This document shows, piece after piece, positions 3,660 to 42,103 of a stretch of 64,000 bases of DNA; positions within the stretch are counted from its first letter, which is position 1; each line of letters starts with the position of its first letter. Source of the DNA: a virus (lineage: Duplodnaviria; Heunggongvirae; Uroviricota; Caudoviricetes); IMG/VR virus record IMGVR_UViG_3300038492_000581, positions 25,815-89,814 of that record. One strand, given 5' to 3'. Made by a program: the position numbers and the translations under genes. A model generated the notes under the pieces. The model saw nothing but the letters and a program-made list of their open reading frames with translations. It had not been told where the DNA came from and made no database searches.

Positions 3660-4388
3660 TCAAGAAATGAAGCCACTGTTTTCTAAGAAAAGTTCGACCT
3701 TCTTCTCAAGATCTTGGATGGTTGAGTTGTTGTGAATGACATATCTGAAGGGATGTTCGTCAAGTGCGGTTTCGGATGGATGGCTATCGCTTTTCAGCGT
3801 CTCCATATCCCTCTCTACTCGAACAACTACACCTTCGCGTGATTCAATAGCCTCAACTTCGTTAGGAAAACGAGTATCGGTTACAAGAACAAGATCAATG
3901 CCTTCCCAATCTTGACGAAACGGAGCCTCAGCCCACACCTCAGAGTAAACTTGTTCGCGGAAAATATCGGTGCCCATTACTTGGAGCAGTTCTCGGTGAG
4001 TCATTAGCCCTGTTCGGGCTACAGATAAATCTTCCTTATCACCGGGTAGCCCAGGAATACCGGGTAATCTTTGTGTATTCGAATACTTAAGACGAATTTC
4101 CATAGGTAGACCATCCCATGGAATATGAGTGAGAGATTCTTTGTCTTGGTTGGCCCCATATACTTTGTTTGGGTCCAACCCAAACACATTGATGCACATA
4201 TCTTTTAGAGTCTCTGCAAAGGCATATTCAGCGACGGTATAACCGCGGGACTCCAATAATTCTGTAGCTATATTTGCCGAAAGATTCTTCCCACGTTGTT
4301 TTTTCCCTGAAAAGCCAATGAATCTTGTCATATTAATCCTTCCAATTTCTTGGTACTGGGATAAATTTGCCAGCCACTTTTTCGACAA
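3660..4388 (-). CDS. deoxynucleoside monophosphate kinase (T4 gp1-like)
   Basis: P-loop IGFSGKKQRGK. LQVMGTDIF and VTDTRFPNEVEAI resemble T4 Dnk LMQALGTDLI and VPDTRQDHE. Confidence 0.55.
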   Translation of the reverse strand: MSKKWLANLSQYQEIGRINMTRFIGFSGKKQRGKNLSANIATELLESRGYTVAEYAFAETLKDMCINVFGLDPNKVYGANQDKESLTHIPWDGLPMEIRLKYSNTQRLPGIPGLPGDKEDLSVARTGLMTHRELLQVMGTDIFREQVYSEVWAEAPFRQDWEGIDLVLVTDTRFPNEVEAIESREGVVVRVERDMETLKSDSHPSETALDEHPFRYVIHNNSTIQDLEKKVELFLENSGFIS

Positions 4389-4821: not shown

Positions 4822-5072
4822 TAAAATTTGTCCTTAGAATATTCAGATACTTTGCCTTCCCAAACAATAGACGATTGCCCGATGTTCCACACACGAACTT
4901 CCTGATCATGACGAGTTCCATATTTTAAGTAAGACTTATGATGACCAATGGCACCCTTCGCACTACTCAATCTATGAAATGTCTTGTAGAACTTCCACTC
5001 TCCATCGCTCTTTACAAGAAGGGCGTAAAAGTTGTCTGGAATCTCTTTGAGTTGATATCTGGCAAAAGACAT
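4821..5072 (-). CDS. hypothetical protein
   Basis: 83 aa ORF, start/stop coupled to its neighbours. Confidence 0.35.
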   Translation of the reverse strand: MSFARYQLKEIPDNFYALLVKSDGEWKFYKTFHRLSSAKGAIGHHKSYLKYGTRHDQEVRVWNIGQSSIVWEGKVSEYSKDKF

Positions 5073-5734
5073 TAAACTCCGCCTCCCAGCTCGTAAAAAC
5101 GATGCATGAATGCACGACGTATAGCATCAAAATCTGTTCCGTGAGCTTGGCAACCGGACGGACTGGTTAAGGCATCATCGACCGCGACAGTAACACGATC
5201 GTAATCTTGGGATACAGCATAATCCTTAACCCAGTCATGCTTTCGCACGAACAGTTCCTTTGCTTCGTGTATCAAGCAATCTGTATCGGCACGATGAACC
5301 AGTTCAGACATGGGCCATACAAGATTAAATTTTTCAAAGATGATTTCTTGCAATCGCTCTTCTGCCGCCTGGACGTTTTCAAACTCTCTTTTTATGGGGC
5401 TTGGTATGTCCGAAAGATAAGCCTCAGAGGCATCATGCATCAGTCCTTGAAGTTGCTCTTGTTCGGTGCCGCCCATGTGCTTGATGCGGTTTGAAACTTG
5501 GATGGAGTGGGCACCGACCGAATAAAAGGTGCGGATTTGTCCATTCCATCGGGCGATCATTGGTAATGCGTGAGCGATATCATTGATATCAATCATCTCG
5601 GGCGAAGCGTTAAAGATATTGACCATTTTGCCCGAGAAGGTTTGAATGGAGGGATTAGGAATCTTCTTGTCCATCTTCGGCAAGCTCCCTGATTGTTTCT
5701 TTCCACGTTTGTTCGACAATATCCTTACTGTCAA
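5072..5734 (-). CDS. HD-domain phosphohydrolase (YfbR-like 5'-deoxynucleotidase)
   Basis: HD motif H...LMHDASEAYLSDIPSPIK. Overlaps the next ORF, so the true start may be the internal MDKK at about 5674. Confidence 0.5.
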   Translation of the reverse strand: MTVRILSNKRGKKQSGSLPKMDKKIPNPSIQTFSGKMVNIFNASPEMIDINDIAHALPMIARWNGQIRTFYSVGAHSIQVSNRIKHMGGTEQEQLQGLMHDASEAYLSDIPSPIKREFENVQAAEERLQEIIFEKFNLVWPMSELVHRADTDCLIHEAKELFVRKHDWVKDYAVSQDYDRVTVAVDDALTSPSGCQAHGTDFDAIRRAFMHRFYELGGGV

Positions 5735-6719
5735 GAAGTCCGAACATCATGCCCCAGTACCCTGATGGAATGTTGGATTGAATCCATAACGCTACGTCTT
5801 TTCGGCTGTCAAAATTTCCTGGTATTGCGTCAAAATATTCGTACGCTCGGTAATTAACGATATCGTAGACTTGCTGAATGCGTGCTCTAATATCATCAAA
5901 ACCCTTTTGAAGCTCTTTGGGTAACGCCGAAATATGTACTCCATAATCCCCTTCACGCATCAGGGCCATAACGCCCTTGACGCTCATGTGCTCCAGGAGA
6001 CGGTGTGCTTTGACGTACCGAGGGTCTTTGGCTTTCACGCGTTTGCCGTTTTCAAAACGTATTACGTAGCCTTCACGTAAATCTTCCTCGAAGGGTATCT
6101 CTGTATCTCTGTCCAATTCAAATTGGAACTGCCGCGGACGACGAAATCCACATCGATTGGCGTAATCTGTTACTCTTTGGTGTGGCCACTCTTCGCCATC
6201 ATGCTCGAAGATGGCGAGCAAAGTTAGAAACTCTTCTTTGTCGTAATCTACAACGACTCGATTATCTGGATAGACAATCTCGAAAATTGGAGTAACTCTA
6301 TCTGGCAATAGTTCTGGGGCATACCTCATGCTATTAAGCATCTCGGTGCCCTTAATAGCTTGATCGCTTACAAAGCTGCCTGGCGTAGCAAGATGCCATT
6401 TACCATTCTTTTGATATCCATTACCGCAAGAACCATCCAGTTTTTCCCAAATAGTATAGCCCTTTGACCAGGGTAAATACTTAGGTTGGGTGCTGGGGCG
6501 TTCGCCGATATTGAAGAACTTGATAAATGGTCGAGCAACAACTTCTCCGCTATCTTTCATGATAAGCCCGCGAGCTTGCATGTTCCACTTGTTCCAAGCA
6601 TTCTTTTGTACGCAATTCTGGGTGTACTTAAACAAGTACATGTCATCAAGCTCAGACCGGTTTACATTGCCGGCGTCAACTTCTCGGTTTAGTTGTTTCC
6701 AAAGATTGTGATCTATCAC
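5655..6719 (-). CDS. RNA ligase, T4 Rnl1 (RnlA)-like
   Basis: ARGLIMKD, PFIKFFNIGERP and the KxDG motif IWEKLDGS align with T4 Rnl1 CRGIMF, PMEKFFNLNENP and KEDGSL. Confidence 0.7.
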   Translation of the reverse strand: MIDHNLWKQLNREVDAGNVNRSELDDMYLFKYTQNCVQKNAWNKWNMQARGLIMKDSGEVVARPFIKFFNIGERPSTQPKYLPWSKGYTIWEKLDGSCGNGYQKNGKWHLATPGSFVSDQAIKGTEMLNSMRYAPELLPDRVTPIFEIVYPDNRVVVDYDKEEFLTLLAIFEHDGEEWPHQRVTDYANRCGFRRPRQFQFELDRDTEIPFEEDLREGYVIRFENGKRVKAKDPRYVKAHRLLEHMSVKGVMALMREGDYGVHISALPKELQKGFDDIRARIQQVYDIVNYRAYEYFDAIPGNFDSRKDVALWIQSNIPSGYWGMMFGLLDSKDIVEQTWKETIRELAEDGQEDS

Positions 6720-7477
6720 GACTTGTTCCGCACCATTTTCAACATTGAATCGAAATCGTTGTATTCAAATTCTACGAGGCTTTGTCCATTCCATACCTCT
6801 TGCATGTTTGCTCGCAGTGTCGGATCATTAATGAAAAACCAACCCTGTCGATTTCGAGGGAGCAGTTCTTCCCAAGTATCTTTGCCATAATGATCTCTGT
6901 CTTCTTCGTTGGATACTTGGTAGTTAATCATATCCTTCATTTCGGAGACAGATTTTCCGTGCAGCTCTCTGTGCGAAAACATCGATCTCGCATACATTGA
7001 GACCGAGTTTCTGGTTGCGTCTCTCCAACGCCACAAAAAATAGTTTCCAACATCTTCCCAAGGCATGTTCCAGCAACGAGCATCAAACATGGCGGGATTT
7101 TCGATTGGGCGGAGAGAATCTTGGTTAAGCAGGCTCGAATTAAATGCTGCGGTTGCTACAGACGATGCAATACTGCAAATCTTCTGCACCTTGCCGCCGA
7201 ACCAAGGCTGACTTTGAGTACGTGCATCTGTTTGAAGGACAATGCTGAATTCATCCGACTGCACGTACCCAAAGATGGCACCCTGAGCTTCTTGCATTAA
7301 AGCTCTGGCAACATCATTCATGCCCCTATTAATCTTCGAATCAAAACAGTGCATGCCTTTTGTATAGTTGTGAAATGATCTGCCGTCCACCCGGATTAAG
7401 ATGGGCATACGAGGAACCAGCACAGACGAGTTGGCCGATTCATACGACTTCATTCTATCGCCGAGAGCGTCTTTCAT
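6716..7477 (-). CDS. Thg1-like protein (tRNA-His guanylyltransferase family)
   Basis: RVDGRSFHNYTK and FGYVQSDEFSIVL match the Thg1 signatures RLDGRxFxxF and YxQSDEhS. The track start at 7555 overlaps the upstream gene; the internal MKDALGDRMKSYE start at 7477 is preferred. Confidence 0.65.
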   Translation of the reverse strand: MKDALGDRMKSYESANSSVLVPRMPILIRVDGRSFHNYTKGMHCFDSKINRGMNDVARALMQEAQGAIFGYVQSDEFSIVLQTDARTQSQPWFGGKVQKICSIASSVATAAFNSSLLNQDSLRPIENPAMFDARCWNMPWEDVGNYFLWRWRDATRNSVSMYARSMFSHRELHGKSVSEMKDMINYQVSNEEDRDHYGKDTWEELLPRNRQGWFFINDPTLRANMQEVWNGQSLVEFEYNDFDSMLKMVRNKS

Positions 7478-8132
7478 TACTCTTCTTCTTTCCCATACCG
7501 GCATCATCGATATAACGGACAATAATCTGGTCGATTTTTTCTCCCTCGCCGCCAAGCTCGTTCATGGCGTGATGAATTTGTGCAAGTAAATTCCTCTGAG
7601 GATAGGGCTTATTGATGAACTCCGGTCCGCGACCCTGGGCATCTGCCTGTGAAATTAGGCCCACCGAAGCTTGATATTGACCAAGATTACGAATTAGCCT
7701 GACGCGTGTGATAGTCTTCAGTTCATTCAGTTTGTGTACTAAGAGATGGTACTTGGAAGCTCGCCAGGCTGTTTCTCGAAACGAATCTGGTGCATTAAAA
7801 GCATCGCATAACTTATGTACAAGAGGTACGCCCAAACTTTCGTGGTCGTAGTGATGCGGGAGATTATCGTCGGGAGTAACGGCTTTGCCGAGGTCATGAC
7901 ACATTGCCCCGAACACCTCTTGAGGGTCACCACCCAGTTCAACAGCACGGTCGACTACCAGGTACGTATGTACGAATGCATCGCCTTCTGGATGCCATTT
8001 GGGAGGCTGTAGCCGCCCTTTTAGATTGTATACCCAAGGGAGATGTTTCTCCATGTCTTCATCTGACATATTACGGAGAAAATCTCCCCCCTGAGTGGTC
8101 AATCCATCAATCAGTTTGTTAAATTCCATCAC
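7455..8132 (-). CDS. HD-domain protein resembling the C-terminal HD (phosphatase/2',3'-cyclic phosphodiesterase) domain of bacterial CCA-adding enzyme
   Basis: KWHPEGDAFVHT...MCHDLGKA resembles the CCA-enzyme HD-domain HPEIDTGIHT...HDIGK, as recalled from memory. Confidence 0.45.
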   Translation of the reverse strand: MMEFNKLIDGLTTQGGDFLRNMSDEDMEKHLPWVYNLKGRLQPPKWHPEGDAFVHTYLVVDRAVELGGDPQEVFGAMCHDLGKAVTPDDNLPHHYDHESLGVPLVHKLCDAFNAPDSFRETAWRASKYHLLVHKLNELKTITRVRLIRNLGQYQASVGLISQADAQGRGPEFINKPYPQRNLLAQIHHAMNELGGEGEKIDQIIVRYIDDAGMGKKKSNERRSRR

Positions 8133-8161
8133 GATCCTCGTGATTAACAGCTTGCCGGACT

Positions 8162-8563
8162 TCAGCCTTTATTGCTGTTGTTAACTTGTGCAGCAGCTTG
8201 GCGTGCAATATCTACGATACGATCAAGCCGCTCATTTGTTGACGAACTTGTGCCGAAGAAGTCGTTATCATCTTCCACAAAGTTTCCGGTGCCATCGTCA
8301 ATCATAGGCTTGAACATCTGGCGAAAAGCACTCATCAGATCATGAGCGTCACCATTAACTTGGCCGATGTTGAAGAAGTAACCATTGCTACGGGCTTTGT
8401 CGAGGCGAGCCCGCAGAATCTTATTCACAGTGCGTCTATCGTGATTGGGGTTCAGGCGACCATGGCGAAACGCCACAGCAAACACTCCCTCGCCGCTTTC
8501 ATTGATGCTGGTGGCTACCGAGATGCCGGCCACTGGTCGATGAGAAAACAGGACTTTCGTCAT
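8162..8563 (-). CDS. hypothetical protein
   Basis: 133 aa ORF. Confidence 0.4.
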   Translation of the reverse strand: MTKVLFSHRPVAGISVATSINESGEGVFAVAFRHGRLNPNHDRRTVNKILRARLDKARSNGYFFNIGQVNGDAHDLMSAFRQMFKPMIDDGTGNFVEDDNDFFGTSSSTNERLDRIVDIARQAAAQVNNSNKG

Positions 8564-8565
8564 TT

Positions 8566-10575
8566 CTACGCTCTCCTTGAGTACATAATGTCAGTTTTTG
8601 GAACGTTGATAGTATAACTTTCGCCTTCAAGGCTGTCAAGGGGACTTTGAATACTTCCCCCATTACGGTTAGTTTTCGAATCCTCCTGCATATAGATTCG
8701 ATAAGCACGCTTGCCGCTGCCGTTGAAGATGTCTGCATTTTGCTGAGATAATCCAGACAAACCATCAGTGAAGATGATGACTGCATCAACATCGTCAGTT
8801 TGAATCTTCTCGTTACAGTATTCGATGACCTCATCGAAACAGGTTGAAGCACCGGCGAACACCTCGCCGGCTCTCATCTGAGCGATTTCGTTTTCATCAA
8901 GCTCTTTGATAGAGCCGGCGAAACTCATAACTCCGGAATCTCCATCGTCATTTCGCGAAAAAGCAATGTCGGCCTTTTCCTCAAACGTATCGCACATATA
9001 CATCATATGAGGAAAGAACTCGGTCATCGAAGGAGAAAGATCGAAGAACACGAGAACGCGACGCTTGCCTTCGGTACCCTCTTGATTTTGAAACAATGGG
9101 TATACAGGCGGACGCATACCCATAATTGCCATCATTGTACCTTCCTCAGTAAGAATCTGAGGATAAGGTCGGCTCATGATGTCATTTTCAAGCACCTCGG
9201 TAATTCGGCCAGCAACATCACGCATGATTTTTTCTGTGTAGATTTTCTCTGCGTAACGATCGAGACCAGGATCGGAAATATCTTCTGGCGTTTTAATGAA
9301 CTTGTCCCAAAATTCGGTCCTACAGTCAGAATACTTTTTCCAGCCCAAGCCACCCTGCAGTCTCTTGGGGACTAAAGACTTGCGTAGAGCCTCTTCGGCT
9401 TCGCGTGCTGATTCCGAGGCAATGTTTAGGCAATCTTCCATCATTCTGATGGTAGATCCATTAGGCATTTTTACTTCGTTCTTATTTTTGCCCTGACCTC
9501 CACCTTGTTGGTTCTTTTGTTCCTCACCCTCTCCTTCGCCACCACCGCCAGGCATTTTAAGAAGAGGAGCTTGACAATCGCTGTCTTCATCCATACCAAA
9601 AGGGTTCATTCCTTTAGTATTTTCATCGATCGGGACACCGAGTCTGGATAGGGCCATTCGATCGTCATAAGTGAGCTGAGAGCGTAGCCGGAAATATAGA
9701 TCATCAGGATTGACGTTTCGGATGTCAAACTTGAGCCTCTTGTAGACTTTCTTGGTTCGTTTCTTCTTAGTCTTCGGAGTTTCGTACTCGATTTCCTGCG
9801 GACCAGTGTCGTAAAGGCTTTCCCAAATCTCTGCGTAAGCGGGATTGACCCTGCGAAGCTTTCTGAGATCGGCATCCTCTAAAGAAGAGTTTGCCAAGGC
9901 CAGAACAGTGAACTTGCTTTCGTCAGGATATAGATATTGACAAAGTTTGTTCCATGCCTTTGAAACTTTGCCAGTAGTAGTGGCCGCCATGATTCGATTA
10001 GCACAAATGTCCATAACAAATCGTGCTAACCTCTTATCACCCAAATTTTCTCGACCACGACACAATGCCCGATGAAGAACCGCCCGTTGCATGATCATAC
10101 GAGCATAAGCCATCTTCCCCATAAGAATATAAGGATTGATGAGAATACGCTCTTTATTATTCTCGTCCAAACCCCACAGACAAATATCTACGTCGGTATT
10201 CGGTTCAGTGATTGTTCGAGCATGCAGATAACTAACACGCATCTTCATGTAAATCTTGCTGATACGAGCTTCCATCTTAGTTCGAGGCTTAACGGCGAAG
10301 ATATCGTACTTAGCGTTGCCTTTCAGCTCGCGACGCATTTCATCGAGATCGATGGGCAGAATCTTTTCTTCGGGTTTAACAAGCTTGCCATAACGCCATA
10401 GCTTGTCTCCGGATTGATCAACCTCAAACCATTTGATGAACCTGCCTTTGGATGTATCTTGTCCATACCTATTGCATCGAGTAGCAAGACTTCCATCTGC
10501 TGAAGTAGGAAGGGGTGCATCGGATCGTACAGTAATGGCGTGAGTTGAATAATCAGTTAGTTGAATGTCGCTCAT
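8566..10575 (-). CDS. von Willebrand factor A domain protein (CobT-like)
   Basis: 669 aa. Acidic/Gly-rich linker GGGGEGEGEEQ and a C-terminal vWA (RVLVFFDLSPSM ... IIFTDG). It sits immediately downstream of the MoxR-like ATPase. Confidence 0.55.
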   Translation of the reverse strand: MSDIQLTDYSTHAITVRSDAPLPTSADGSLATRCNRYGQDTSKGRFIKWFEVDQSGDKLWRYGKLVKPEEKILPIDLDEMRRELKGNAKYDIFAVKPRTKMEARISKIYMKMRVSYLHARTITEPNTDVDICLWGLDENNKERILINPYILMGKMAYARMIMQRAVLHRALCRGRENLGDKRLARFVMDICANRIMAATTTGKVSKAWNKLCQYLYPDESKFTVLALANSSLEDADLRKLRRVNPAYAEIWESLYDTGPQEIEYETPKTKKKRTKKVYKRLKFDIRNVNPDDLYFRLRSQLTYDDRMALSRLGVPIDENTKGMNPFGMDEDSDCQAPLLKMPGGGGEGEGEEQKNQQGGGQGKNKNEVKMPNGSTIRMMEDCLNIASESAREAEEALRKSLVPKRLQGGLGWKKYSDCRTEFWDKFIKTPEDISDPGLDRYAEKIYTEKIMRDVAGRITEVLENDIMSRPYPQILTEEGTMMAIMGMRPPVYPLFQNQEGTEGKRRVLVFFDLSPSMTEFFPHMMYMCDTFEEKADIAFSRNDDGDSGVMSFAGSIKELDENEIAQMRAGEVFAGASTCFDEVIEYCNEKIQTDDVDAVIIFTDGLSGLSQQNADIFNGSGKRAYRIYMQEDSKTNRNGGSIQSPLDSLEGESYTINVPKTDIMYSRRA

Positions 10576-10703
10576 TATTTATCTGCTGAAGAAACGCCTC
10601 AACAAAGATGGCCAATTCATTGTCGCTTAAGCGTGCAAACTTAGTTACTTTATAAAGTAGCTTTGCACGCTCATTCAAACTTGCTTTCTGCCATTTATTT
10701 GTA

Positions 10704-12086
10704 TCAATCATCGTTATTCGTTGCTAAAATCTCGGAAACCTGCAAAGAGTTAAGACGATCGGCCTTTGCGTACTTGGAGGCCATCATTTGCATTTTAGAG
10801 TCAGTGCAGTCAGGATAGCTGCCATGCATGAGAACTCGTGCAATATCCGTGATGACAAAGCCACGAACTTGATCGGCAACATGCTTGGTCTTAGGGTGAT
10901 CCTTGAGAACTTTCCATAGAGGACCAACCTGAGAGATGTCTTCGGAAGTTGCCTGATTTAGAGTATCGCCAGTGATACGGGTGATTTCCAAATCATCAAG
11001 ATGTTGGCAAACGTTGGCAATTTCTCTTTGAAGAAAATCAACCTTCTGTCGGGCCGACAGGGCCGAAGCAAAGCCACAGTGAAGTTTGCCCTCGGGGGTG
11101 TTGATGCCTTCGACGAGCATTCCGGATAGCTGACGCCAAGCTTTATTACAGATGTCAATGAACTCGGGCCCAGCCTCTGAATGATGGGTCTGAATATTGT
11201 AGCGAACCGCATACTCTCCGGCAAGCTGAAGAGGATTAGGATATCCCATTACTCGGAAATATGCACAAAGCCCCACAATAGCGATCGGAAGTTGTGCTGC
11301 AAAAGTACGAGGAGAAGTCCAAGCAGCGAGATTCTCTCTAAGCTCCGTGCTTCCCATCACCTTGTCTTTGATGTGAGGGATAAAAGCACTAACGAATGTA
11401 GACATCTGCTCGAATAAATCATCATCTTCAATGAGAATTTCGTACTCTTGTCGAGTTTTTACAATCACTTCGTCAAGCTCGGTCGCAATAGACTGAAGAT
11501 TTCGGCCAGAACTTCTTCGGTTAAGTGCGATCATACTACGAACATCGCTGGGTTCTACAGTCTCATAATTTTCGCATGGTAACCAAAAAAGAAAACGATC
11601 CTTGAGGGCCGCATCCAGCTTACGAGAATTCTTGTACGTGGCTGGATTGCCTGTGGCAATAGCAAGAGTGTAGTCGCATGGAATACCCTGAAATGAACGC
11701 TCTTCGAGAACTTCCATCCAATAGTTCATGCGTTCTGTGTTGGCACGGGCCAGCTCGTCAATAACGACAATATTGGCACCAAAGATCGATCGGTCCGTTT
11801 TGATAAACTCAAACTTGCCGGTCTTTTCGGCACCCGCCATGTTTGGGAATCCACCAATATCAATTAGGCCCGCTTTATCTGCTGAATAGTAGCGGAATCC
11901 GCGACCAGTCTCATCAATAGTGCGACCAAGAACCTTGCCCAGCGTGGTCTTGCCAACACCGTGAAGAGCTTCGAGATAAATATTGTGCCGAAGTGCCGCG
12001 GCAACAACAACGCACGGCTCGATCTTGTGATATCCTCCTACAATTTTTTCGAGGATACTTTGACTCTTAGGAATGGTGAAGCTCAT
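10704..12086 (-). CDS. MoxR-like AAA+ ATPase (CobS-like)
   Basis: Walker A ALHGVGKTTL, Walker B VVIDELARAN, sensor ATGNP and LDAALKDRF. Confidence 0.65.
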   Translation of the reverse strand: MSFTIPKSQSILEKIVGGYHKIEPCVVVAAALRHNIYLEALHGVGKTTLGKVLGRTIDETGRGFRYYSADKAGLIDIGGFPNMAGAEKTGKFEFIKTDRSIFGANIVVIDELARANTERMNYWMEVLEERSFQGIPCDYTLAIATGNPATYKNSRKLDAALKDRFLFWLPCENYETVEPSDVRSMIALNRRSSGRNLQSIATELDEVIVKTRQEYEILIEDDDLFEQMSTFVSAFIPHIKDKVMGSTELRENLAAWTSPRTFAAQLPIAIVGLCAYFRVMGYPNPLQLAGEYAVRYNIQTHHSEAGPEFIDICNKAWRQLSGMLVEGINTPEGKLHCGFASALSARQKVDFLQREIANVCQHLDDLEITRITGDTLNQATSEDISQVGPLWKVLKDHPKTKHVADQVRGFVITDIARVLMHGSYPDCTDSKMQMMASKYAKADRLNSLQVSEILATNNDD

Positions 12087-12091
12087 TGTAA

Positions 12092-12682
12092 TTAGCTCTC
12101 CTGATCGAAGTCGAAGTCGGTGACTTCGGTAATGGACAGATAAACGTCGGCCTCTTCTGTGGCACCCCGGAAGATGGCATCGATGGCACCTTCGCCACCT
12201 TTTTGAGTGGTTACCTCGATGATGACGAGGTCATTGTCGTTTGCATTGACAGTCACGACTTTTGAGAAAGCTAAGATCTTTTTGAACATGATCTTATACT
12301 TGATAGCTTCGGCTTGCTCGGGGTCACTGACGGTAGCTTCATCGTAGTAGAACTCTGTAAGCCCGCTAACTACTTGTCCTCCAGCAACTTTCTGTACTTT
12401 GTCGCTGATGGAAAAGATGGTTGGTGTTTCTCGGCCCTTGCAATGAACCAAGAATTGATGTCCAGATAAAGCCTGTGCCACTTCTTGATCCGCGACGTGG
12501 TCACAGCCACGTAAAATTGTGGCGTCCTTGGCGTTACTACGCTCAACACCGAACTCGCGTGCGATGGAATTCAGATTTCGCATACCGAAGCCAAAATGGG
12601 TGCCGAGAACGCGATAGGGCGTGCCGTTCGTGTCATCGAGCGAACGTGCCGTACGCACTCTGGGAGTGAGATCAGTGCTCAT
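12092..12682 (-). CDS. hypothetical protein
   Basis: 196 aa ORF. Confidence 0.4.
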   Translation of the reverse strand: MSTDLTPRVRTARSLDDTNGTPYRVLGTHFGFGMRNLNSIAREFGVERSNAKDATILRGCDHVADQEVAQALSGHQFLVHCKGRETPTIFSISDKVQKVAGGQVVSGLTEFYYDEATVSDPEQAEAIKYKIMFKKILAFSKVVTVNANDNDLVIIEVTTQKGGEGAIDAIFRGATEEADVYLSITEVTDFDFDQES

Positions 12683-12739
12683 GTGGATTCTCCGTTGTGT
12701 GACTCGTCCTAAGAGTATAGCACGAGTTGAGCGAGGCAG

Positions 12740-13105
12740 CTATTTTTTCTCGATTTTTCCTTCTTCGTAGCCGCTGCACTGTTTTACTTCTGGCACGTCT
12801 ATTTGCTTTCTTAAGATTGGATGACAGCAAATGCCGTGAATGAATGTCTTGACGGTGTGGGCTTTTGATTCAACCTCTTTGGTGCCATCATCGTCATTTT
12901 CGCCGTGACCAAACAATTCGTTGTGGGCGGCAAGAGCGTGATCTACTTCAGCCGGGCTATTTTCGTCGAAGAATGTGCCGTCTTCAACCACGGGATGAGC
13001 TGTACGAACATCAAAGATGCTCTCAGTTGCCAACTTAAGCCCACAAATTCCATGCTTACAAGTAAAGCATAGCGAATTCTCTGCGTTTAGTTCGTTTTTA
13101 CTCAT
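12740..13105 (-). CDS. hypothetical Cys/His-rich protein
   Basis: 121 aa with several CxxC/HxxxC pairs. Confidence 0.35.
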   Translation of the reverse strand: MSKNELNAENSLCFTCKHGICGLKLATESIFDVRTAHPVVEDGTFFDENSPAEVDHALAAHNELFGHGENDDDGTKEVESKAHTVKTFIHGICCHPILRKQIDVPEVKQCSGYEEGKIEKK

Positions 13106-13680
13106 TTGTTTCTTTCAAATACCAGAGGATCATCCCATAGAACTTCGCCAGGAATATGCTGATAGGTGTCAATGAAACGCTGAATTACATCAAGCGGAAC
13201 ATTATGAACATTTCGTTTAACCAAAACCTTAGCATCCCACGGTCCTGGTGTCCGAATGATTTCAAACCGGTAATCAAACTGTCTCGCCAAATCAGCATAG
13301 ACTTGTACATCTCTTATTTTGATTGATGTATTAGAAACAATAATGCATTCGGTTCGTGCGATCATTTCTCGCTTTACTTCAAGTTGACACCACTTGTGAG
13401 CATCCCCCAGAAAATCTTTATTGAATGCGTAATTTGGGCCCCAAAAGTTATCGGCTTCAATTACAGGAGGACTTTCGATTTCGTCGTGCGATCTACTGAA
13501 CATGAACTGCTCAGAAAGATGGTTTGCGATTGTACTCTTGCCAGTTCCACAAGGGCCGCGTACAATATAAAGAATTGGCTTCTGTTTTTCACAGTATGAC
13601 AATGGTCTATATCCAAGATGTTTGAGAAGTTTGTCGTCCATGATCAAAAGTTTGGGCGGCCCCATTTTTGGGCCGCCCAA
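13102..13680 (-). CDS. polynucleotide 5'-kinase-like P-loop kinase (T4 Pnk kinase-domain-like, no fused phosphatase domain)
   Basis: P-loop IVRGPCGTGKST. IIVSNTSI and KRNVHNVPLDVIQRFIDTY parallel T4 Pnk IISDTNL and [20 protein letters not shown]. Confidence 0.55.
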   Translation of the reverse strand: MGGPKMGPPKLLIMDDKLLKHLGYRPLSYCEKQKPILYIVRGPCGTGKSTIANHLSEQFMFSRSHDEIESPPVIEADNFWGPNYAFNKDFLGDAHKWCQLEVKREMIARTECIIVSNTSIKIRDVQVYADLARQFDYRFEIIRTPGPWDAKVLVKRNVHNVPLDVIQRFIDTYQHIPGEVLWDDPLVFERNK

Positions 13681-13686
13681 TTGTGG

Positions 13687-14091
13687 TTAGAAGAGTTGGT
13701 CGTCATCCTCATTTTCAGACGGCTTTGCAGCTTTCTTCTTTTGCGTCGCCTTGCCACCACCGCCATCGCCCCTCGACATAAACTCGAAGGAATCGATGAT
13801 GAATTCAATCTTTGAACGCTTTTCACCGTCAGTGTTTTCCCACTGATTCAGAGAAGCCTGACATTCGACCAAGATGGGCGTACCCTTCTTGAAATGTTCT
13901 GCGATCACTTCGGCACGACGGCCGAAAGCAACCAGATCGAAAAAGTTGACCCGATCATCCTTGTCTTTACCGGCGTAAGCATTGCTCGCGATAGTCAGTC
14001 GGGCCACAGCGGTCCCACTCTTTGCTTCACGAAGCTCAACATCACGAGTGAGATTGCCCGTAAAGATACACTTGTTAAGATTGCTCGCCAT
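13687..14091 (-). CDS. ssb: single-stranded DNA-binding protein
   Basis: OB-fold-like N terminus, a Gly-rich linker GDGGGGK and the acidic C-terminal tail DDDQLF. Confidence 0.75.
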   Translation of the reverse strand: MASNLNKCIFTGNLTRDVELREAKSGTAVARLTIASNAYAGKDKDDRVNFFDLVAFGRRAEVIAEHFKKGTPILVECQASLNQWENTDGEKRSKIEFIIDSFEFMSRGDGGGGKATQKKKAAKPSENEDDDQLF

Positions 14092-14639: not shown

Positions 14640-14730
14640 TGAGTGGAGCCGGCGAGAATTGAACTCGCGTGCTGCTGTCCGTCGCCTCGATAGGATTTTA
14701 CACGCTTAGTTTCTTGCGAAACATTGGGGG
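14640..14730 (-). tRNA. possible tRNA-like element. Only the T-arm was recognised.
   Basis: Minus-strand GCGAGTTCAATTCTCGC T-arm followed by CGGCTCCA. I could not pair a 5' acceptor strand. Confidence 0.2.
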
Positions 14731-15012
14731 ACGTATTTGGTACGTCGCCTTCCACCACTCTGTTTTGTGAAAACAGAGAAAACGTTTTGCCGATGTATTA
14801 TAGTCGTCCCAATCTATCGGCATCAATTGGTTTGACTTGCTGCTACGCAGCCATCTTTGTAGTGCCAGTTAGGCTTGAGCATTCTGTTAAGGTCGGACGC
14901 ACAACAACCCTGCGTGACTATCTCAGTTCGTGAACCCAGTCGATACCTTTCGGCCCCGGGTACCATTAATAGTACACTTAATGGTGTCTAAAGTCAACTG
15001 ATTTTTGATGAT

Positions 15013-15914: not shown

Positions 15915-15989
15915 GGGGGAACGCCGGGATTTGAACCCGAACTTCCAGAGTCACAATCTGACGTGCTCACCGTTTACACCACGATCCCC
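15915..15989 (-). tRNA. tRNA-His (GTG)
   Basis: Anticodon loop TTGTGAC, T-arm TCGGGTTCAAATCCCGG and acceptor GGGGATC. The G run at the 5' end is compatible with an encoded G-1. Confidence 0.55.
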
Positions 15990-17609: not shown

Positions 17610-18131
17610 CTAAAACTTTTCTGTCTTGCCTGACAGGTAATTATGTGATCGACGATAGATGCCGCTTGTTAATTTTTTCGACATCCAAAGCTTTGCGAAT
17701 GGCCCGCCTCTACCAAGAGACATATTATCCCGCAGATCAGCCAACTTAGCTCTTCGAGCCAATTCATTACTGCGTACTCTTTCGATATAGTCTTCATAAC
17801 TTTCGCCTTCGATTTTAGTCATGGCGACTACACTGTCTACAATATCCGGATGATATACTCTTTCTAAATCCTCTTCGGCAACATCCGTATCCTCAATTAA
17901 ATCGTGCATGATGCATACACATTGAAGCATAACATATTCAACTTCGGTAAGTCCGCTATGATCTACATGCAGCATTACACGCATGGGATGTAGGATGTAA
18001 GGAACATCACTTCCTTTATCTGTTTGTTTGTTGTGGTATATAGTGGCCAACTGGATTGCTTTTTGCAGATAGGCGTAAGCTTCTCTCAATTCCGGAGGAG
18101 TGTATTTAAGAACTTTTTGTCGCTCAACCAT
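17610..18131 (-). CDS. HD-domain hydrolase of the SpoT/Mesh1 (p)ppGpp hydrolase type
   Basis: YILHPMRV ... MHDLIEDT matches the RelA/SpoT HD-domain signature. Confidence 0.5.
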   Translation of the reverse strand: MVERQKVLKYTPPELREAYAYLQKAIQLATIYHNKQTDKGSDVPYILHPMRVMLHVDHSGLTEVEYVMLQCVCIMHDLIEDTDVAEEDLERVYHPDIVDSVVAMTKIEGESYEDYIERVRSNELARRAKLADLRDNMSLGRGGPFAKLWMSKKLTSGIYRRSHNYLSGKTEKF

Positions 18132-21037: not shown

Positions 21038-21074
21038 AACCGTGATGTGACTATGCCTTGCATAGTTTATTTGG

Positions 21075-21146
21075 TGGAGGTTGGCAGAATCGAACTGCCA
21101 ATTTCTGCGTGCAAAGCAGATGTGTTCCCGTTAGCACTAAACCCCC
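21075..21146 (-). tRNA. tRNA-Ala (TGC), with genomically encoded CCA at 21072..21074
   Basis: GGGGGTTTAGTGCTAACGGGAACACATCTGCTTTGCACGCAGAAATTGGCAGTTCGATTCTGCCAACCTCCA followed by CCA. Confidence 0.6.
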
Positions 21147-21669: not shown

Positions 21670-22218
21670 TTAATTGAGAAAATCGCAAATTCTGTCAAAA
21701 TCGAAATGGTTACGATCGTAACCAATTATCATTTCTGTGGTTGCGAAACTCTTCAAGAATTCTTGGTTGTAGTCCCACTGCGGCATTAAGACTTTCGTGC
21801 CAGGATTCTTCTGCATGAAGGGCTTAACAAAGTCGGGTCCGTCATCTACCAAGAGGTGTGCTTTTAGTATAGAGCGATCTTGAGTAAGATGAAAAGGATA
21901 ACCGGGGAACGCCCGGTTGATCCAATTAAGCTTGCCAACCAACGCCCGCCCGCCGCATTTTGGGATACCACTTACAAAATGGACTTCATATCCGTGAGAC
22001 TTAACAAGGCTTACTATTTCAAAGCCTGTTTGAATTCTGGGTACTTCTTCCCAAAAAGATTGTCTTGATTTGATGTGGTTAAGCTGATTGTTTGCCTCGT
22101 CAGAATTCTGGGGCGAGTTCCACGTATGAACAAACGAGCAATCCATTTGTTCGGCGAGTGACCCATGAATGTTTGCAAGGACACCATCAACATCAATAAG
22201 TGCGATTTTGTTATGCAC
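21670..22218 (-). CDS. HAD-superfamily phosphatase/nucleotidase
   Basis: Motif I LIDVDGVL and motif IV LVDDGPD. Confidence 0.55.
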   Translation of the reverse strand: MHNKIALIDVDGVLANIHGSLAEQMDCSFVHTWNSPQNSDEANNQLNHIKSRQSFWEEVPRIQTGFEIVSLVKSHGYEVHFVSGIPKCGGRALVGKLNWINRAFPGYPFHLTQDRSILKAHLLVDDGPDFVKPFMQKNPGTKVLMPQWDYNQEFLKSFATTEMIIGYDRNHFDFDRICDFLN

Positions 22219-22219
22219 C

Positions 22220-22567
22220 TTATTGTTTCTCCATCAAGACGCTATCACTTTTACGATCGATCACTTTCCAACCTTGTCGACCCCATTTGTTAACAATTTT
22301 TTCCTGTTGTTCTGTGACCCAAAGATGATGAATTACAACAACTTGAACACCAGATTTCGCGTCTTGAGGAGGTTCGGGGGCCTCCCACTCTTCGTGAGAT
22401 TCAATTGCCCGGCTAAACAATTCATTGATGCCAGTGACAATTAAAAATATACTACTGATAGTTATCGTAGCCACCCCTAAACCTATAAGAAAGGCATAAC
22501 TTATTTTCTTCAATTTCATCGAGCGAACTTTTTGAATTGCTTCTTTTTTGTTCGTTGTTGTCTGCAT
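22220..22567 (-). CDS. membrane-anchored protein with a C-terminal WGRQGWKV domain
   Basis: N-terminal TM helix. The C terminus is paralogous to the 59698..59961 product (KWGKAGWKVV). Confidence 0.4.
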   Translation of the reverse strand: MQTTTNKKEAIQKVRSMKLKKISYAFLIGLGVATITISSIFLIVTGINELFSRAIESHEEWEAPEPPQDAKSGVQVVVIHHLWVTEQQEKIVNKWGRQGWKVIDRKSDSVLMEKQ

Positions 22568-22586
22568 TTTTTACTCCGTAAATGAG

Positions 22587-22669
22587 TAGGCGGCTTGGGA
22601 TTTGAACCCAACTGGACCAGACTACGGAATTATAATCCACTGCTTATAAGACAGTTCCGATACCCGCCC
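22587..22669 (-). tRNA. tRNA, long (83 nt) and atypical. Anticodon loop TTATAAT or CTTATAA; isotype unresolved.
   Basis: Acceptor GGGCGGG/GCCGCCT and T-arm TTGGGTTCAAATCCCAA are clean. The D and anticodon region contains two AT-rich palindromic hairpins that I cannot fit to a standard cloverleaf. Confidence 0.4.
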
Positions 22670-22684
22670 ATATGTTTTGGTACA

Positions 22685-22921
22685 TTAATCTTCTTCATCA
22701 TCTTTGGCTTCGACGGTAGCTTGGAAAGCTTCTTCCATAGCCCTTACAAGATCAAAGAAGGATTGTGTTTGATCCTTATCAAGATCTACGCACAGTCCGC
22801 TTTCCTTATGGAAAAAACTAACCGTGTAGTCCGATTGCCCGTCGTCTGACAGATCCATATAGAATGACGCGTCATCAAAGTTGCTCGTCAGGTCTACACG
22901 CATTGGTAGGCGTCTGCTCAT
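22685..22921 (-). CDS. hypothetical acidic protein
   Basis: 78 aa. Confidence 0.35.
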   Translation of the reverse strand: MSRRLPMRVDLTSNFDDASFYMDLSDDGQSDYTVSFFHKESGLCVDLDKDQTQSFFDLVRAMEEAFQATVEAKDDEED

Positions 22922-23385
22922 GAGTTGAGTATCCTGATAATTTGATCGGCTTCCGCAACAGTTAAACCTCCATTCTTTCCATTTGTTTTTACAAAGAAAG
23001 GAAGCTGTATTTCTTCATCGTCCACAATAGCACAACGAGTCATCGTAAGAAGAGGGTTAAGCTCTGTATCAACGATCCAAAGCATGATTTCAGACCTCCG
23101 ATCACGCAGGCTCATTTTAATGGGCGTAAACCATTTTGGCCGACTTATATCCATGGCATCAAAAGCTTGAAAGACTTTATTTCGATCGTAACGCCACGAA
23201 GAAGATACGCATACTTCGCAGCCAGTTTCTTCGATGATTCTTTTTAATTGTGCTACACAAGAGGGATCGAAGCCCGCGGCTGACTGGCACCACTCAACTT
23301 GTCCATCTTCATCTGAAGGGAGATTGTCTTTCCAATGTTGGACGTGATTGAGAACACCATCGATGTCAAGAAAGAGAACTTTCAT
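22918..23385 (-). CDS. HAD-superfamily phosphatase
   Basis: LFLDIDGVL, VSSSWR and AIVDDE. Confidence 0.55.
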   Translation of the reverse strand: MKVLFLDIDGVLNHVQHWKDNLPSDEDGQVEWCQSAAGFDPSCVAQLKRIIEETGCEVCVSSSWRYDRNKVFQAFDAMDISRPKWFTPIKMSLRDRRSEIMLWIVDTELNPLLTMTRCAIVDDEEIQLPFFVKTNGKNGGLTVAEADQIIRILNS

Positions 23386-23933
23386 GATTTAAGTTTTCCA
23401 TGTTTTACAAAATATGAATGATTTTCATCTTTCAGTCTTTTGATGTATCTCTTCTGAATGTCAATCAGTTTATGTGCGTTTTTCAAACGGTTGATCGTGC
23501 CTTGTTCCCAATATGTAGATGACGAAAGTGTGCGTGAAAGATCATGTGCGTCCTCTTCGCTAAATCCTATACGTCCATCGACTTTAATGAGACGGTCGGG
23601 CATAGTTTCATAATAATGCCATCGATCAATAGCTTCGTCATCAACAACAGCCCAATTGAATATGTTATTCTGACCTACATATCGTAGAACCGCACTACTT
23701 CTATCAAAACTTTCTGTGTACACAGAAATGCTGTCTACACCATGCTCCATCATGCGACGTTTCAGAAGATCTGAGTTAAAAGCAGAAAGAGTTACTACTT
23801 TTGAATCATGCTCTCTTATTACTTGAGCAAATCGATGTAGCAAAACATCGTCAAGATCTGGATTCGTGTGGCCTTCTGCGAAGGTGTATCGATTGAATAC
23901 GCCATCAACATCAATGAATACAACAGGTTTCAT
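23382..23933 (-). CDS. HAD-superfamily phosphatase
   Basis: VFIDVDGVF and AVVDDE. Confidence 0.55.
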   Translation of the reverse strand: MKPVVFIDVDGVFNRYTFAEGHTNPDLDDVLLHRFAQVIREHDSKVVTLSAFNSDLLKRRMMEHGVDSISVYTESFDRSSAVLRYVGQNNIFNWAVVDDEAIDRWHYYETMPDRLIKVDGRIGFSEEDAHDLSRTLSSSTYWEQGTINRLKNAHKLIDIQKRYIKRLKDENHSYFVKHGKLKS

Positions 23934-24588: not shown

Positions 24589-25757
24589 TCATCTCCATAA
24601 AGATTGTGTGTACGAATATAGTCTACCACAGGTGTAGGCAAATTCGAAAGATTTTTTCGAGATTCTGTGCTTGAGACTTGTTCAAACTTCGGGTTTTCAT
24701 GCGTCACAATATTGAGCGAATTAGAACGCGGTGGCCGATCTAAATCCTTGCTGTTCCGCATGAAAACATGAAGTGCCGATGTCTTCAAAGGGTCAAGATA
24801 ATCTTCTGTGGGGCAGTATTTGTCTGCTACTACTGCATTGTAGGTATCAAGACCCATCACGTAGTTCCGGACTTCGGGGCATCCAAAACTCGTTAGCATT
24901 TCGTCAAATTCAACAAATTTACCATAACCAAAAGTTACAAGAACTGGGTACCCCAAAGAATTGATCATAGAGATTCGATGAGATATATCCTTCAGATCCG
25001 TTGGCATCATCTTTCGGACATTGGTCAAACTGATTTCGAATATTGGATCTTCAGGAGACTTGAGTGCCATGTAATCGTGTGCATCTGTAACTGGCCTAAA
25101 AGATCCTCGAAACCAGTTAACGTTTTGACGAATGTGCGAGACTGCTCTTCTCGGAACTCCATCTGTACCGAAAAACAGAGGGTTGTTCTTGTTGCAAAAC
25201 TCTAACAGGTGTTCTTGTGCGAATCCTCTGCTTTTAATCACATCAATGTTTACCGGCAAGCCTTGAATATAGTCTAAGGTTTCATTCCACTTTGTTCCCC
25301 GGTAAAGAAGGACGTTTGACATGAACCATAGAATTGTATCTAAGGTTGTCATGATTGCGGTTTCGCGGGTCATTCCCTTGCGAAGACGAAAATGCATTAG
25401 TGAACGAGAGCCTTCATCGTAATACAGAGATACCCAAGCATGACTTTCTCCTTGTTCATCCTCTTTTTTGAAGGCTCCGGTAATACAAAGCGAAAAAGGT
25501 GTTTTGCCAAGCTTTTCAATTTCGTTACGATTTTCGGAATGATCTTCCCAAGCGATTCGTGCCGCCATTTCTTCTGAAACAGATGTAGTTCCTATACAGG
25601 TTGGCTGAGTGTTCTTGTGATACCTGCACGTGCTCTTGTACAGAACCTTAGAGGCACCATCATGACTGGTGAGCCATGCAGTAAGAGGCACGCCAAGGCC
25701 AGCTTCGTTGATACAGCCCATGTATCCCGAGTTTTTTAGATCTTCGAAGATTTGCAT
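24585..25757 (-). CDS. hypothetical protein in the NAD-salvage neighbourhood
   Basis: 390 aa, translationally coupled to the NAMPT gene. No PRPP-synthetase or NMNAT motif seen. Confidence 0.45.
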   Translation of the reverse strand: MQIFEDLKNSGYMGCINEAGLGVPLTAWLTSHDGASKVLYKSTCRYHKNTQPTCIGTTSVSEEMAARIAWEDHSENRNEIEKLGKTPFSLCITGAFKKEDEQGESHAWVSLYYDEGSRSLMHFRLRKGMTRETAIMTTLDTILWFMSNVLLYRGTKWNETLDYIQGLPVNIDVIKSRGFAQEHLLEFCNKNNPLFFGTDGVPRRAVSHIRQNVNWFRGSFRPVTDAHDYMALKSPEDPIFEISLTNVRKMMPTDLKDISHRISMINSLGYPVLVTFGYGKFVEFDEMLTSFGCPEVRNYVMGLDTYNAVVADKYCPTEDYLDPLKTSALHVFMRNSKDLDRPPRSNSLNIVTHENPKFEQVSSTESRKNLSNLPTPVVDYIRTHNLYGDE

Positions 25758-27379: not shown

Positions 27380-27896
27380 TAGCCAATCTTACCAACTTGT
27401 TGTGATTGAAGGCCAGCTTGATGGACCCAGTTTGTACGTCGTGGATCGGAAACCATGCGGCGTCATAGCAATCGTCGCCGCCCCGCGGTTGTTTTTGTTC
27501 TTTTGCAATGTTTACCCAGAGGTCTGTTGGGTAGCGATCGGGAATTTGGATTCTTCCAACATGATGGAGGGTTTCGGGAACGAGTCCCGTTTCTTCCCAG
27601 TGTTCTCGAATGGCAGCATCAAACTCCGATTCACCTTCGTTAACGTGTCCGCCAGGCAAGGCCCAGAAATCTGGATAGAGATTGGCATCTTTATTTCTCT
27701 TCACTAAGAGAATATAGTTGCCGTAGAACGTTGCGATATCACCAGTTAAAAGTCGTGATCGATGGGCGACGGCACTGCATTCGCGAGCAAGCTCGCGAAG
27801 ACCTTTATGCTTTTCGGGGTCCGTGTCGTCAATTACTTGTTTTGCAATTTTTTTGAGATAAATCTCAAGATATTTTTCGCGAAGTTCGTCGGTCAT
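27348..27896 (-). CDS. Nudix hydrolase (ADP-ribose/NAD pyrophosphatase-like)
   Basis: Nudix box GGHVNEGESEFDAAIREHWEETGL. Confidence 0.7.
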   Translation of the reverse strand: MTDELREKYLEIYLKKIAKQVIDDTDPEKHKGLRELARECSAVAHRSRLLTGDIATFYGNYILLVKRNKDANLYPDFWALPGGHVNEGESEFDAAIREHWEETGLVPETLHHVGRIQIPDRYPTDLWVNIAKEQKQPRGGDDCYDAAWFPIHDVQTGSIKLAFNHNKLVRLAIVEYEELRNA

Positions 27897-28291: not shown

Positions 28292-28369
28292 TGGGGACGG
28301 TGGGGCTCGAACCCACATTTACATCCTATTACCACTGTACGGTTTAGAAGACCGCCGGGATACGTCCCC
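28292..28369 (-). tRNA. atypical tRNA-like, anticodon loop CTTCTAA (Arg TCT). No recognisable D-arm.
   Basis: Perfect acceptor GGGGACG/CGTCCCC, T-arm GTGGGTTCGAGCCCCAC and anticodon arm GCGGT-CTTCTAA-ACCGT. Only 5 nt separate TA(8-9) from the anticodon stem. A 22-nt insert (ACAGTGGTAATAGGATGTAAAT) lies between the anticodon and T arms. Confidence 0.4.
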
Positions 28370-41919: not shown

Positions 41920-42103
41920 TGCCGGAGGCAGGATTCGAACCTGCAAGCCGCCAGTCAAACCCCTTTTGTCTTATGGGAAGTGGCCACTTCCCATAAGACT
42001 TCATGATTCTATTCTGTTGCTGCATTTCATGATTGCAGCACGGCACCCGCTTTACGAACGGGCGTGTTTACCAATTTCACCACTCCGAGCTTAATATCGT
42101 ATA
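41920..42103 (-). tRNA. tRNA-like fragments: a 3' T-arm/acceptor element (41920..41950) and a tRNA-Tyr-like 5' half (42040..42103), separated by two strong hairpins including a perfect 26-bp palindrome
   Basis: 3' part GCAGGTTCGAATCCTGC-CTCCGGC-A. 5' part GCTCGGAG-TG-GTG-AAATTGGTAAA-CAC-G-CCCGT-TCGTAAA-GCGGG (anticodon GTA, C33). Between them lie TTATGGGAAGTGGCCACTTCCCATAA and GCTGCAATCATGAAATGCAGC. The acceptor strands pair only 5 of 7. Confidence 0.25.

Follow-up and report, generated by a model that had tools for sequence, protein, structure and literature searches.

Does the block of minus-strand genes at positions 5072-13,680 of a large phage genome encode enzymes that repair damaged tRNA ends, and from which parts would such a set be built? 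The genes lie in a 64,000-nucleotide stretch (hereafter the window) of the IMG/VR record IMGVR_UViG_3300038492_000581, a member of the Caudoviricetes (positions 25,815 to 89,814 of the record). An initial annotation, made from the sequence alone, had listed there a T4 Rnl1-like RNA ligase, a Thg1-like protein (TLP), two HD-domain proteins, and a kinase resembling polynucleotide kinase (Pnk), and all five open reading frames (ORFs) were indeed found at the coordinates given, on the minus strand. We conclude that the locus probably encodes a tRNA end-repair set of an uncultured large phage, in which a T4-like heal-and-seal system, split over separate genes, is joined by a TLP acting as a 5'-end arm.

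Families of the HD protein, Thg1-like protein, ligase, and kinase

The gene at 7455-8132 (-) encodes a predicted stand-alone phosphoesterase of 225 amino acids with an HD domain (PF01966), which had been described as similar to the phosphatase domain of CCA-adding enzymes. This description could be refined. The protein matched positions 203-373 (of 409) of the NCBIfam profile NF008137 ('multifunctional CCA addition/repair protein') with an E value of 2.4e-33, its score of 115 not reaching the whole-protein cut-off of 451. It also matched the C-terminal half of phrog_2244 (tRNA nucleotidyltransferase) and was 45% identical to residues 226-414 of the full-length CCA enzymes encoded at the same position in two related loci, L008 and L009. 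The metal-binding and catalytic residues H47, H55, H79-D80, H97 (in the HHxxH motif), H129, H133, and D164 were invariant over 27 homologues. A search of the PDB by sequence gave nothing significant, and the family was decided by the NCBIfam profile and a fold search. With the AF2 model (pLDDT 92) as the query, the top 14 Foldseek matches were all entries of the class II tRNA nucleotidyltransferase 3WFO-3WFR (TM 0.60-0.65), of which the model fitted only the C-terminal half, and generic HD proteins came far behind. Neither tblastn nor a motif scan detected the nucleotidyltransferase head of a CCA enzyme (GGxVRD, DxD), whether in the window or in the 10 kb beyond its left end, and the upstream 133-aa ORF (8162-8563), considered as a possible remnant of this head, did not contain one. 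Judged from its sequence, the protein is not a CCA-adding enzyme: the head and neck are missing, and it would be unable to add CCA. It is what remains of a full-length CCA-adding enzyme of class II (E. coli type) with orthologues in the relatives, a 'headless Cca' that did not arise independently, and it recurs as a family of its own, about 30 of its 41 closest homologues being likewise 180-260 aa long. That the HD half stayed intact after the nucleotidyltransferase was lost, both here and in these homologues, argues for selection on the phosphoesterase activity itself. In E. coli Cca, the HD domain is described as taking 2',3'-cyclic phosphate off the 3' ends of tRNAs (PMC6961547, citing Yakunin 2004). 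The phage protein shares with this domain the homology at positions 203-373 and all the HD motif residues, and differs from E. coli Cca by the absence of the nucleotidyltransferase head and neck.

The next gene, at 6716-7477 (-), encodes a bacterial-type TLP. It matched the Thg1 family PF04446 with an E value of 5e-29 (101 bits, cut-off 29.2), in agreement with the initial annotation and with no assignment to an unrelated family, and phrog_4717 with an E value of 1e-70. Its best PDB match was the Bacillus thuringiensis TLP (4KGK, E 3.3e-40), while structures of archaeal TLPs and eukaryal Thg1 were far weaker (E 6e-9 to 3e-7). Because of this difference (3.3e-40 versus about 1e-8 for the others), we placed the protein in the bacterial TLP branch rather than with the eukaryal, tRNA-His-specific Thg1. 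The metal-binding carboxylates D31 (in RVDG) and D75-E76 (in QSDE) are kept in the alignment with 4KGK, and the protein is a predicted template-dependent 3'-5' nucleotidyltransferase. TLPs extend 5'-truncated tRNAs by templated nucleotide addition, after adenylylating the 5'-monophosphate (PMC4820378). The phage protein thus resembles the B. thuringiensis TLP and other bacterial and archaeal TLPs in sequence (E 3e-40), catalytic carboxylates, and length; unlike the B. thuringiensis enzyme, it comes from a phage, in which its translation is coupled to that of an RNA ligase. Homologues are present in 164 deposited phage genomes, and our literature search found no experimental work on a phage TLP.

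The third protein (5655-6719, -) is a predicted ATP-dependent RNA ligase of the T4 Rnl1 family, as had been proposed. It matched PF09511 (RNA_lig_T4_1) in a Pfam scan with an E value of 5.7e-20 (72.6 bits, cut-off 28.3) and phrog_562 with an E value of 4e-57, residues 21-344 of 354 being covered, and the only PDB entries that it matched were those of T4 Rnl1 (2C5U, E 3e-10). In the PDB alignment, the motif I nucleophile K93 (KLDG) was aligned with K99 of T4 Rnl1, the sequence EGYV with the EGYV of T4 motif IV, and KAK (motif V) with T4 K240/K242. As to the C-terminal domain that confers tRNA specificity, the phrog_562 alignment extends to residue 344, and the direct alignment with T4 Rnl1 ends at residue 241. 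The strict NCBIfam equivalog cut-off (242) was not reached (58.9), and by these scores the protein is a member of the T4 Rnl1 family, not an equivalog of T4 RnlA. The start at GTG 6719 is supported by the L008 orthologue, which aligns from residue 1; residues 28-47 furthermore match Rnl1 profiles. The long N-terminus therefore appears to be real, and the public gene call of 308 aa too short. Homologues were found in 1767 deposited phage genomes. In L009 (6972-8101), Rnl1 is seemingly in two pieces, an N-terminal one of 119 aa and the remaining 250 aa, which could be due to a frameshift, a pseudogene, or an assembly error.

The kinase had been annotated from 13102 to 13680 as a Pnk-like protein without phosphatase domain; its identity was borne out, its start probably not. 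The ORF is open up to TTG 13680. A perfect, GC-rich 11-bp hairpin (9 GC pairs; 13652-13680), terminator-like on both strands, lies between the SSB gene and the kinase gene. Because this hairpin overlaps the TTG codon and the N-termini of homologues fall near residue 35, translation most likely starts at ATG 13641, and the gene would extend over 13102-13641 (-). The protein was below threshold with AAA_33 (25 bits, cut-off 27) and matched the polynucleotide kinase family phrog_505 with an E value of 6e-9. The 17 homologues that we collected, one of which is named 'NEDD4-binding protein 2' in one source, are 148-174 aa long (148-192 aa if the phage protein is included) and comprise the kinase domain only, with no phosphatase domain. 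A single-sequence search of the PDB returned only P-loop noise. A profile made from the alignment of 18 homologues ranked the T4 Pnk kinase domain first (1LY1, E 1.2e-7; full-length T4 Pnk, 1LTQ, E 4.5e-7), followed by the kinase of Clostridium thermocellum Pnkp (CthPnkp) and the tRNA kinase PSTK, with deoxynucleoside and deoxynucleoside monophosphate (dNMP) kinases at E values of 0.007 or worse. Foldseek with the AF2 model (pLDDT 88.5) placed the CthPnkp kinase (4GP6/4GP7/4JT2) first, with a TM score of 0.72 and an E value of about 1e-7, before PSTK and then gluconate and APS kinases. The invariant P-loop, Asp, and Arg were aligned with K15, D35 (the general base), and R126 (in the lid) of T4 Pnk. 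By profile and by predicted fold, the protein thus groups, with modest scores, with polynucleotide and tRNA kinases and not with dNMP kinases, as a kinase-only relative of the polynucleotide 5'-kinases (AAA_33/Pnk clade). The actual dNMP kinase of the phage is a separate gene (3660-4388, PF21448).

The second HD protein (5072-5734, -) lies directly after Rnl1 and overlaps its end; its start is uncertain (5734, 5674, or 5626). It resembles HD phosphohydrolases of the YfbR/Dmp type, as initially annotated, but the role in RNA repair that had been suggested for it is less likely. It matched phrog_318 (dNMP 5'-phosphatase) with an E value of 2e-47, was just under the cut-off of the Pfam YfbR-like family (22.8 bits versus 25.9) and below that of NCBIfam (17.6 versus 122), and had as its best PDB match the uncharacterised HD protein Atu1052 (E 1e-13; YfbR itself, E 0.02). 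The gene follows Rnl1 in L008 and L009 and is also found in L010, where Rnl1 is absent. Because the protein is closest to phage dNMP 5'-phosphatases and its gene is grouped with those of a dNMP kinase and an exonuclease, it more likely removes 5'-phosphate from nucleotides than acts on RNA ends, and it probably belongs to the adjacent nucleotide-metabolism genes.

An overlapping operon and its counterparts in related loci

Nearly all genes at about 0.3-49 kb of the window are on the minus strand. Within the operon, a purine-rich stretch precedes the ATG of the TLP (7477), which is located inside the HD gene, 23 nt from its 3' end, and the GTG of Rnl1 (6719) overlaps the stop codon of the TLP (GTGA). 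The kinase gene is on the same strand, 5 kb upstream of the HD gene, from which it is separated by two small ORFs, a MoxR ATPase, a 669-aa vWA protein, and the 133-aa ORF mentioned above.

The closest homologues of the TLP and of the Cca-type HD protein (36-58% identity) were found on metagenomic phage contigs. The MoxR, TLP, and HD proteins are identical on a JGI metagenome contig, and a contig of about 110 kb represents the window as well. A megablast of positions 5000-14000 against 50,697 phage records gave no match, nor did tblastn of the 669-aa vWA protein, and the phage appears to belong to a lineage without a cultured relative.

Comparison of the related loci revealed two arrangements. 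In L008 and L009, the position of the HD gene is occupied by a full-length CCA enzyme (PolyA_pol, RNA-binding, and HD domains, 414-426 aa), followed in order by the TLP, Rnl1, the YfbR-like HD protein, the dNMP kinase, and an RNase_T exonuclease; in L009, an AAA_33 kinase gene is directly upstream of the CCA enzyme. In L015-L018, the HD protein is stand-alone, Rnl1 is 0.6-3 kb downstream, and the TLP is absent; in L015 and L016, a kinase gene is about 1.2 kb upstream of the HD gene, with one vWA gene between them. A further locus, L010, encodes the TLP and neither Rnl1 nor a Cca-type HD protein. All six related loci with a CCA/HD gene (L008, L009, and L015-L018) thus also encode Rnl1, 0.6-3 kb downstream; three of them (L009, L015, and L016) have the kinase 0.1-1.2 kb upstream of the CCA/HD gene, and two (L008 and L009) the TLP between CCA/HD and Rnl1. 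Since Rnl1 lies close downstream in all six, the clustering appears to go beyond chance.

The genes between the kinase and the HD protein include the MoxR AAA+ ATPase and the 669-aa protein with a C-terminal vWA domain (MIDAS, DxSxS), at 8566-12086 (-), a pair kept in L009, L010, and L018. We found no evidence that this pair is part of a repair module; published work suggests a chaperone role in assembly for MoxR-vWA proteins. The vWA gene that separates the kinase from the HD protein in L015 and L016 has its homologue in a second vWA gene of the window (40417-41574, -). The 133-aa (8162-8563), 121-aa, and 196-aa ORFs had no family matches and no counterparts in the related loci, and were left out of the proposed set.

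A putative repair pathway and its alternatives

What we observed directly comprises the families of the proteins, their intact catalytic residues, the overlap of the genes in the operon, and the linkage conserved in relatives. From the biochemistry of T4 Pnk and Rnl1, the HD domain of E. coli Cca, and the B. thuringiensis TLP, we infer the enzymatic steps, the tRNA substrate, and the counter-defence purpose that follow. The predicted heal-and-seal activities (kinase, Cca-type HD protein, and Rnl1) are all encoded in one same-strand block. The stand-alone HD protein would open and remove a 2',3'-cyclic phosphate or 3'-phosphate, the kinase-only Pnk relative would phosphorylate the 5'-OH, and the ligase would seal the break, as in T4. 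The TLP, read from one message together with its overlapping neighbours, would refill lost 5' nucleotides of tRNAs with the 3' acceptor strand as the template, including G-1 opposite C73 of tRNA-His. Like the ligase, it would need a 5'-monophosphate end, which the kinase could supply; since TLPs act after adenylylating a 5'-monophosphate, there would be a chemical reason for the TLP and the ligase to share a kinase. The initial annotation had proposed that the phosphatase missing from the kinase is supplied by the HD proteins. For the Cca-type HD protein, this is supported by the conserved kinase-HD-Rnl1 linkage in relatives; the YfbR/Dmp-like protein is a less likely candidate. The window is also rich in matching parts, with 24 tRNA genes, a transfer-messenger RNA (tmRNA), two SAK-HAD phosphatases, a ligase of the DraRnl type, and RlaP with a metallophosphoesterase, all described below.

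A bolder version of this proposal is that HD-TLP-Rnl1 and the Pnk-type kinase form one pathway, in which the Cca-derived phosphoesterase replaces the phosphatase of Pnk and the TLP, alongside the ligase, rebuilds 5' ends damaged by host defence. We advance it only tentatively. Several observations speak against the heal-and-seal reading as a whole. The kinase is 5 kb away, with other genes between; it matches Pnk with no more than modest scores (E about 1e-7, identity 15-20%), with PSTK, gluconate, and APS kinases close behind. Of the six related loci with HD and Rnl1, four lack the TLP, and in other phages it does not adjoin a ligase and may act independently. The linkage was seen within one phage lineage, in which the flanking dNMP kinase and RNase_T exonuclease genes are syntenic as well, and part of it could be due to common descent. 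There is no obvious need for G-1 addition, as explained below. Finally, our literature search found no defence nuclease that clips tRNA 5' ends, a paper on PtuAB not specifying the site of cleavage, and we know of none.

The enzymes could instead serve the routine maturation and upkeep of the phage's own tRNAs, with no counter-defence purpose. In the relatives, the CCA enzyme would add CCA; the TLP would secure G-1 of tRNA-His if host RNase P cuts at +1; and the HD half would repair spontaneous cyclic-phosphate damage at 3' ends. We consider this unlikely, and the tRNA genes provide evidence on both sides. ARAGORN detected 24 of them (15915-45272, -), the presumed clients of the repair enzymes. 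An encoded CCA is absent from 23 of the 24 and is present only in tRNA-Ala (21072-21146); in 15 genes, position 74 is a C followed by T, in most others a T comes straight after the discriminator, and the tmRNA shows the same pattern. With CCA mostly not encoded, the phage tRNAs depend on a CCA-adding enzyme that is no longer encoded at the syntenic site; CCA addition would have to come from the host, whereas relatives with the full CCA enzyme would be able to mature their own tRNAs. The lack of encoded CCA in tRNAs and tmRNA and the full CCA-adding enzyme at exactly the same position in relatives thus favour a role in maturation. But the CCA-adding half has been lost here, so that the retained HD protein, kinase, and ligase are left unexplained, and ordinary tRNA maturation in bacteria involves neither a ligase nor a 5'-kinase.

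The same applies to tRNA-His (15915-15989, -), a possible TLP substrate. Its G-1/C73 arrangement is one that TLPs can restore, and the phage TLP could by analogy restore G-1 on it. But G-1 is already encoded (15989), opposite the C73 discriminator, and G-1 addition is therefore not obviously needed. A role of the TLP in adding G-1 to a tRNA-His encoded without it was thus not supported. Another possibility, that the TLP edits the 5' side of mismatched acceptor stems of the phage tRNAs, as happens in amoebal mitochondria, was rejected because these stems are essentially fully paired: a single mismatch is present in each of tRNA-His, Phe, Lys, Thr, and Met. The mismatch in tRNA-Met (44021-44092, -) is C1xA72, the mark of bacterial initiator tRNAs.

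Less probable still is that both HD proteins and the kinase act on free nucleotides (turnover of dNMPs or 2',3'-cyclic nucleoside monophosphates, or removal of signalling nucleotides), their proximity to Rnl1 and the TLP being an inherited gene order. The YfbR/Dmp-like HD protein, the dNMP kinase, an NT5C-type HAD phosphatase, and the exonuclease do share the block, the flanking non-RNA genes are equally syntenic in relatives, and the kinase has a fold common to small-molecule kinases. The HD domain of E. coli Cca reportedly also hydrolyses free 2',3'-cyclic nucleoside monophosphates in vitro. However, the best matches of the kinase, in sequence and in fold, are polynucleotide and tRNA kinases; the HD protein derives from a tRNA-binding enzyme; HD, TLP, and Rnl1 overlap translationally; and the HD-Rnl1 linkage persists while the genes in between vary. 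That the Rnl1 homologue is mainly a tail-fibre attachment factor, like T4 gp63 in its second function, and is unrelated to its neighbours is very improbable: phrog_562 bears the label 'RNA ligase and tail fiber protein attachment catalyst', but the ligase motifs are intact, structural genes are absent nearby, and Rnl1 is linked to RNA-end enzymes in seven loci.

Further RNA-repair genes and relation to known systems

Apart from the operon and the kinase, the window contains other genes that may contribute to RNA repair. The initial annotation had pointed to three tandem HAD phosphatases (21670-23933) as another possible source of 3'-phosphatase activity. Two of them are tandem stand-alone SAK ('Swiss Army Knife') HAD phosphatases of the RNA-repair type (22918-23385 and 23382-23933, -; PF18143 HAD_SAK_2, E 8.5e-19 and 2.4e-14; phrog_1818), and they are predicted to be alternative 3'-phosphatases for RNA end healing; the third (21670-22218) turned out to be an NT5C-type deoxyribonucleotidase. 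A second RNA ligase (32878-33903, -) is of the nick-sealing DraRnl type with an N-terminal OB domain (TIGR02306, 164 bits, cut-off 151; PF09414 and PHA02142 OB domain). RlaP, the RNA-ligase-associated Pol-beta nucleotidyltransferase (47833-48528, -; PF10127), is followed directly by a calcineurin-type metallophosphoesterase (47153-47917, -; PF00149), a pair identified by phrog_388 and phrog_1649. From their family assignments, the DraRnl-type ligase and the RlaP-phosphoesterase pair appear to be a second and a third RNA-repair module.

The tmRNA gene (14641-14957, -) was missed by ARAGORN and detected with Rfam RF00023 over the full model (63.3 bits, gathering score 47). It has G3.U70 in its acceptor stem and a 3' end in CCAC followed by tc, without a full CCA; with GGC as the resume codon, the tag is probably (A)GTTKMAA. 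The gene is about 1 kb upstream of the kinase, past the SSB gene and a 140-aa ORF, and fits a translation-rescue theme; tmRNAs in large phages are already known (PMC7162821). Weak additional tRNA matches were obtained with Rfam at 28292-28369, 43440-43509, and 41920-42089, the last being 170 nt long and possibly holding an insert. Two HNH_3 homing-type endonuclease genes (42716-43240 and 43485-44018, -) are situated among the tRNA genes.

A 173-aa protein (17610-18131, -) had a sub-threshold match to HD_4, of the SpoT/small-alarmone-hydrolase type (22.6 bits versus 27.2), and could degrade alarmones or reverse the 3'-pyrophosphorylation of tRNA by toxSAS. An NAMPT-like nicotinamide phosphoribosyltransferase gene (25757-27379) overlaps a NUDIX gene (27348-27896, -), together a putative NAD+ salvage pair; such pairs have been proposed to act against defences that deplete NAD+. 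Just past the window's left end, the contig L019 (11293-16570) encodes a sigma factor, uracil-DNA glycosylase, methionine aminopeptidase, peptide deformylase, and PhoH, which are further translation- and RNA-related genes.

The best-known counterpart of the proposed pathway is the tRNA restriction-repair system of T4, in which Pnkp and Rnl1 counter the anticodon nuclease PrrC. The phage shares with it a 5'-kinase of the Pnk clade, with the aligned Asp and Arg, and the Rnl1 motifs, and, as far as the genes tell, the logic of healing 2',3'-cyclic phosphate ends and 5'-OH termini before sealing. In contrast with T4, the kinase has no fused HAD phosphatase, 3'-healing is predicted to fall to a separate HD protein derived from a CCA-adding enzyme, and a TLP is inserted between this HD protein and the ligase. 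The Pnkp of C. thermocellum, which works with Hen1, also belongs to a modular heal-and-seal system, and by structure the phage kinase matches its kinase domain best (TM 0.72). However, it fuses kinase, metallophosphoesterase, and ligase, which are here encoded by separate genes, the phosphoesterase being of another fold. A TLP beside an RNA end-healing enzyme is independently found in mycobacteriophages of the Omega type (cluster J): in phage Pound, the TLP (gene 114, annotated as 'tRNA nucleotidyltransferase') is two genes from a polynucleotide kinase (gene 117). Pound differs in that no Rnl1 or HD protein is annotated in the 5-kb flanks and that its Pnk is of the full-length kinase-phosphatase type.

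RNA-repair toolkits of jumbo phages were surveyed by Iyer et al. 2021 (PMC7824862), who list Rnl1/Rnl2, PNK, SAK-HAD, RlaP, CCA enzyme, and many tRNAs, with sporadic Thg1 and occasional HD-like phosphatases, and interpret them as counter-defence; the available text of this survey treats the parts genome by genome. The toolkit concept has therefore already been published for large phages, and it is the make-up found here that is unusual. Neither the overlapping HD-TLP-Rnl1 operon nor the linkage of a headless Cca HD family with a kinase-only Pnk and Rnl1 was found described in that text or in the literature that we searched, and both, the latter in its recurrent form, seem to be new to the literature to this extent.

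If the proteins prove ordinary, the locus would be one more example of the toolkit catalogued for large phages. For the cellular role of bacterial and phage TLPs, the operon provides a concrete hypothesis, namely that TLPs belong to phage counter-defence tRNA repair. The headless Cca HD protein, the kinase-only Pnk, and Rnl1 suggest that heal-and-seal repair can be assembled from parts other than T4 Pnkp, and such a pathway would widen the set of markers by which RNA repair is recognised in phage genomes. It would, in addition, give a hint of host nucleases whose damage falls on the ends of tRNAs rather than on their anticodon loops. Should the operon and the kinase indeed form one pathway, a bacterial-type TLP would for the first time have a defined physiological setting, and defence nucleases would be implied to attack the acceptor stem of tRNAs on its 5' side.

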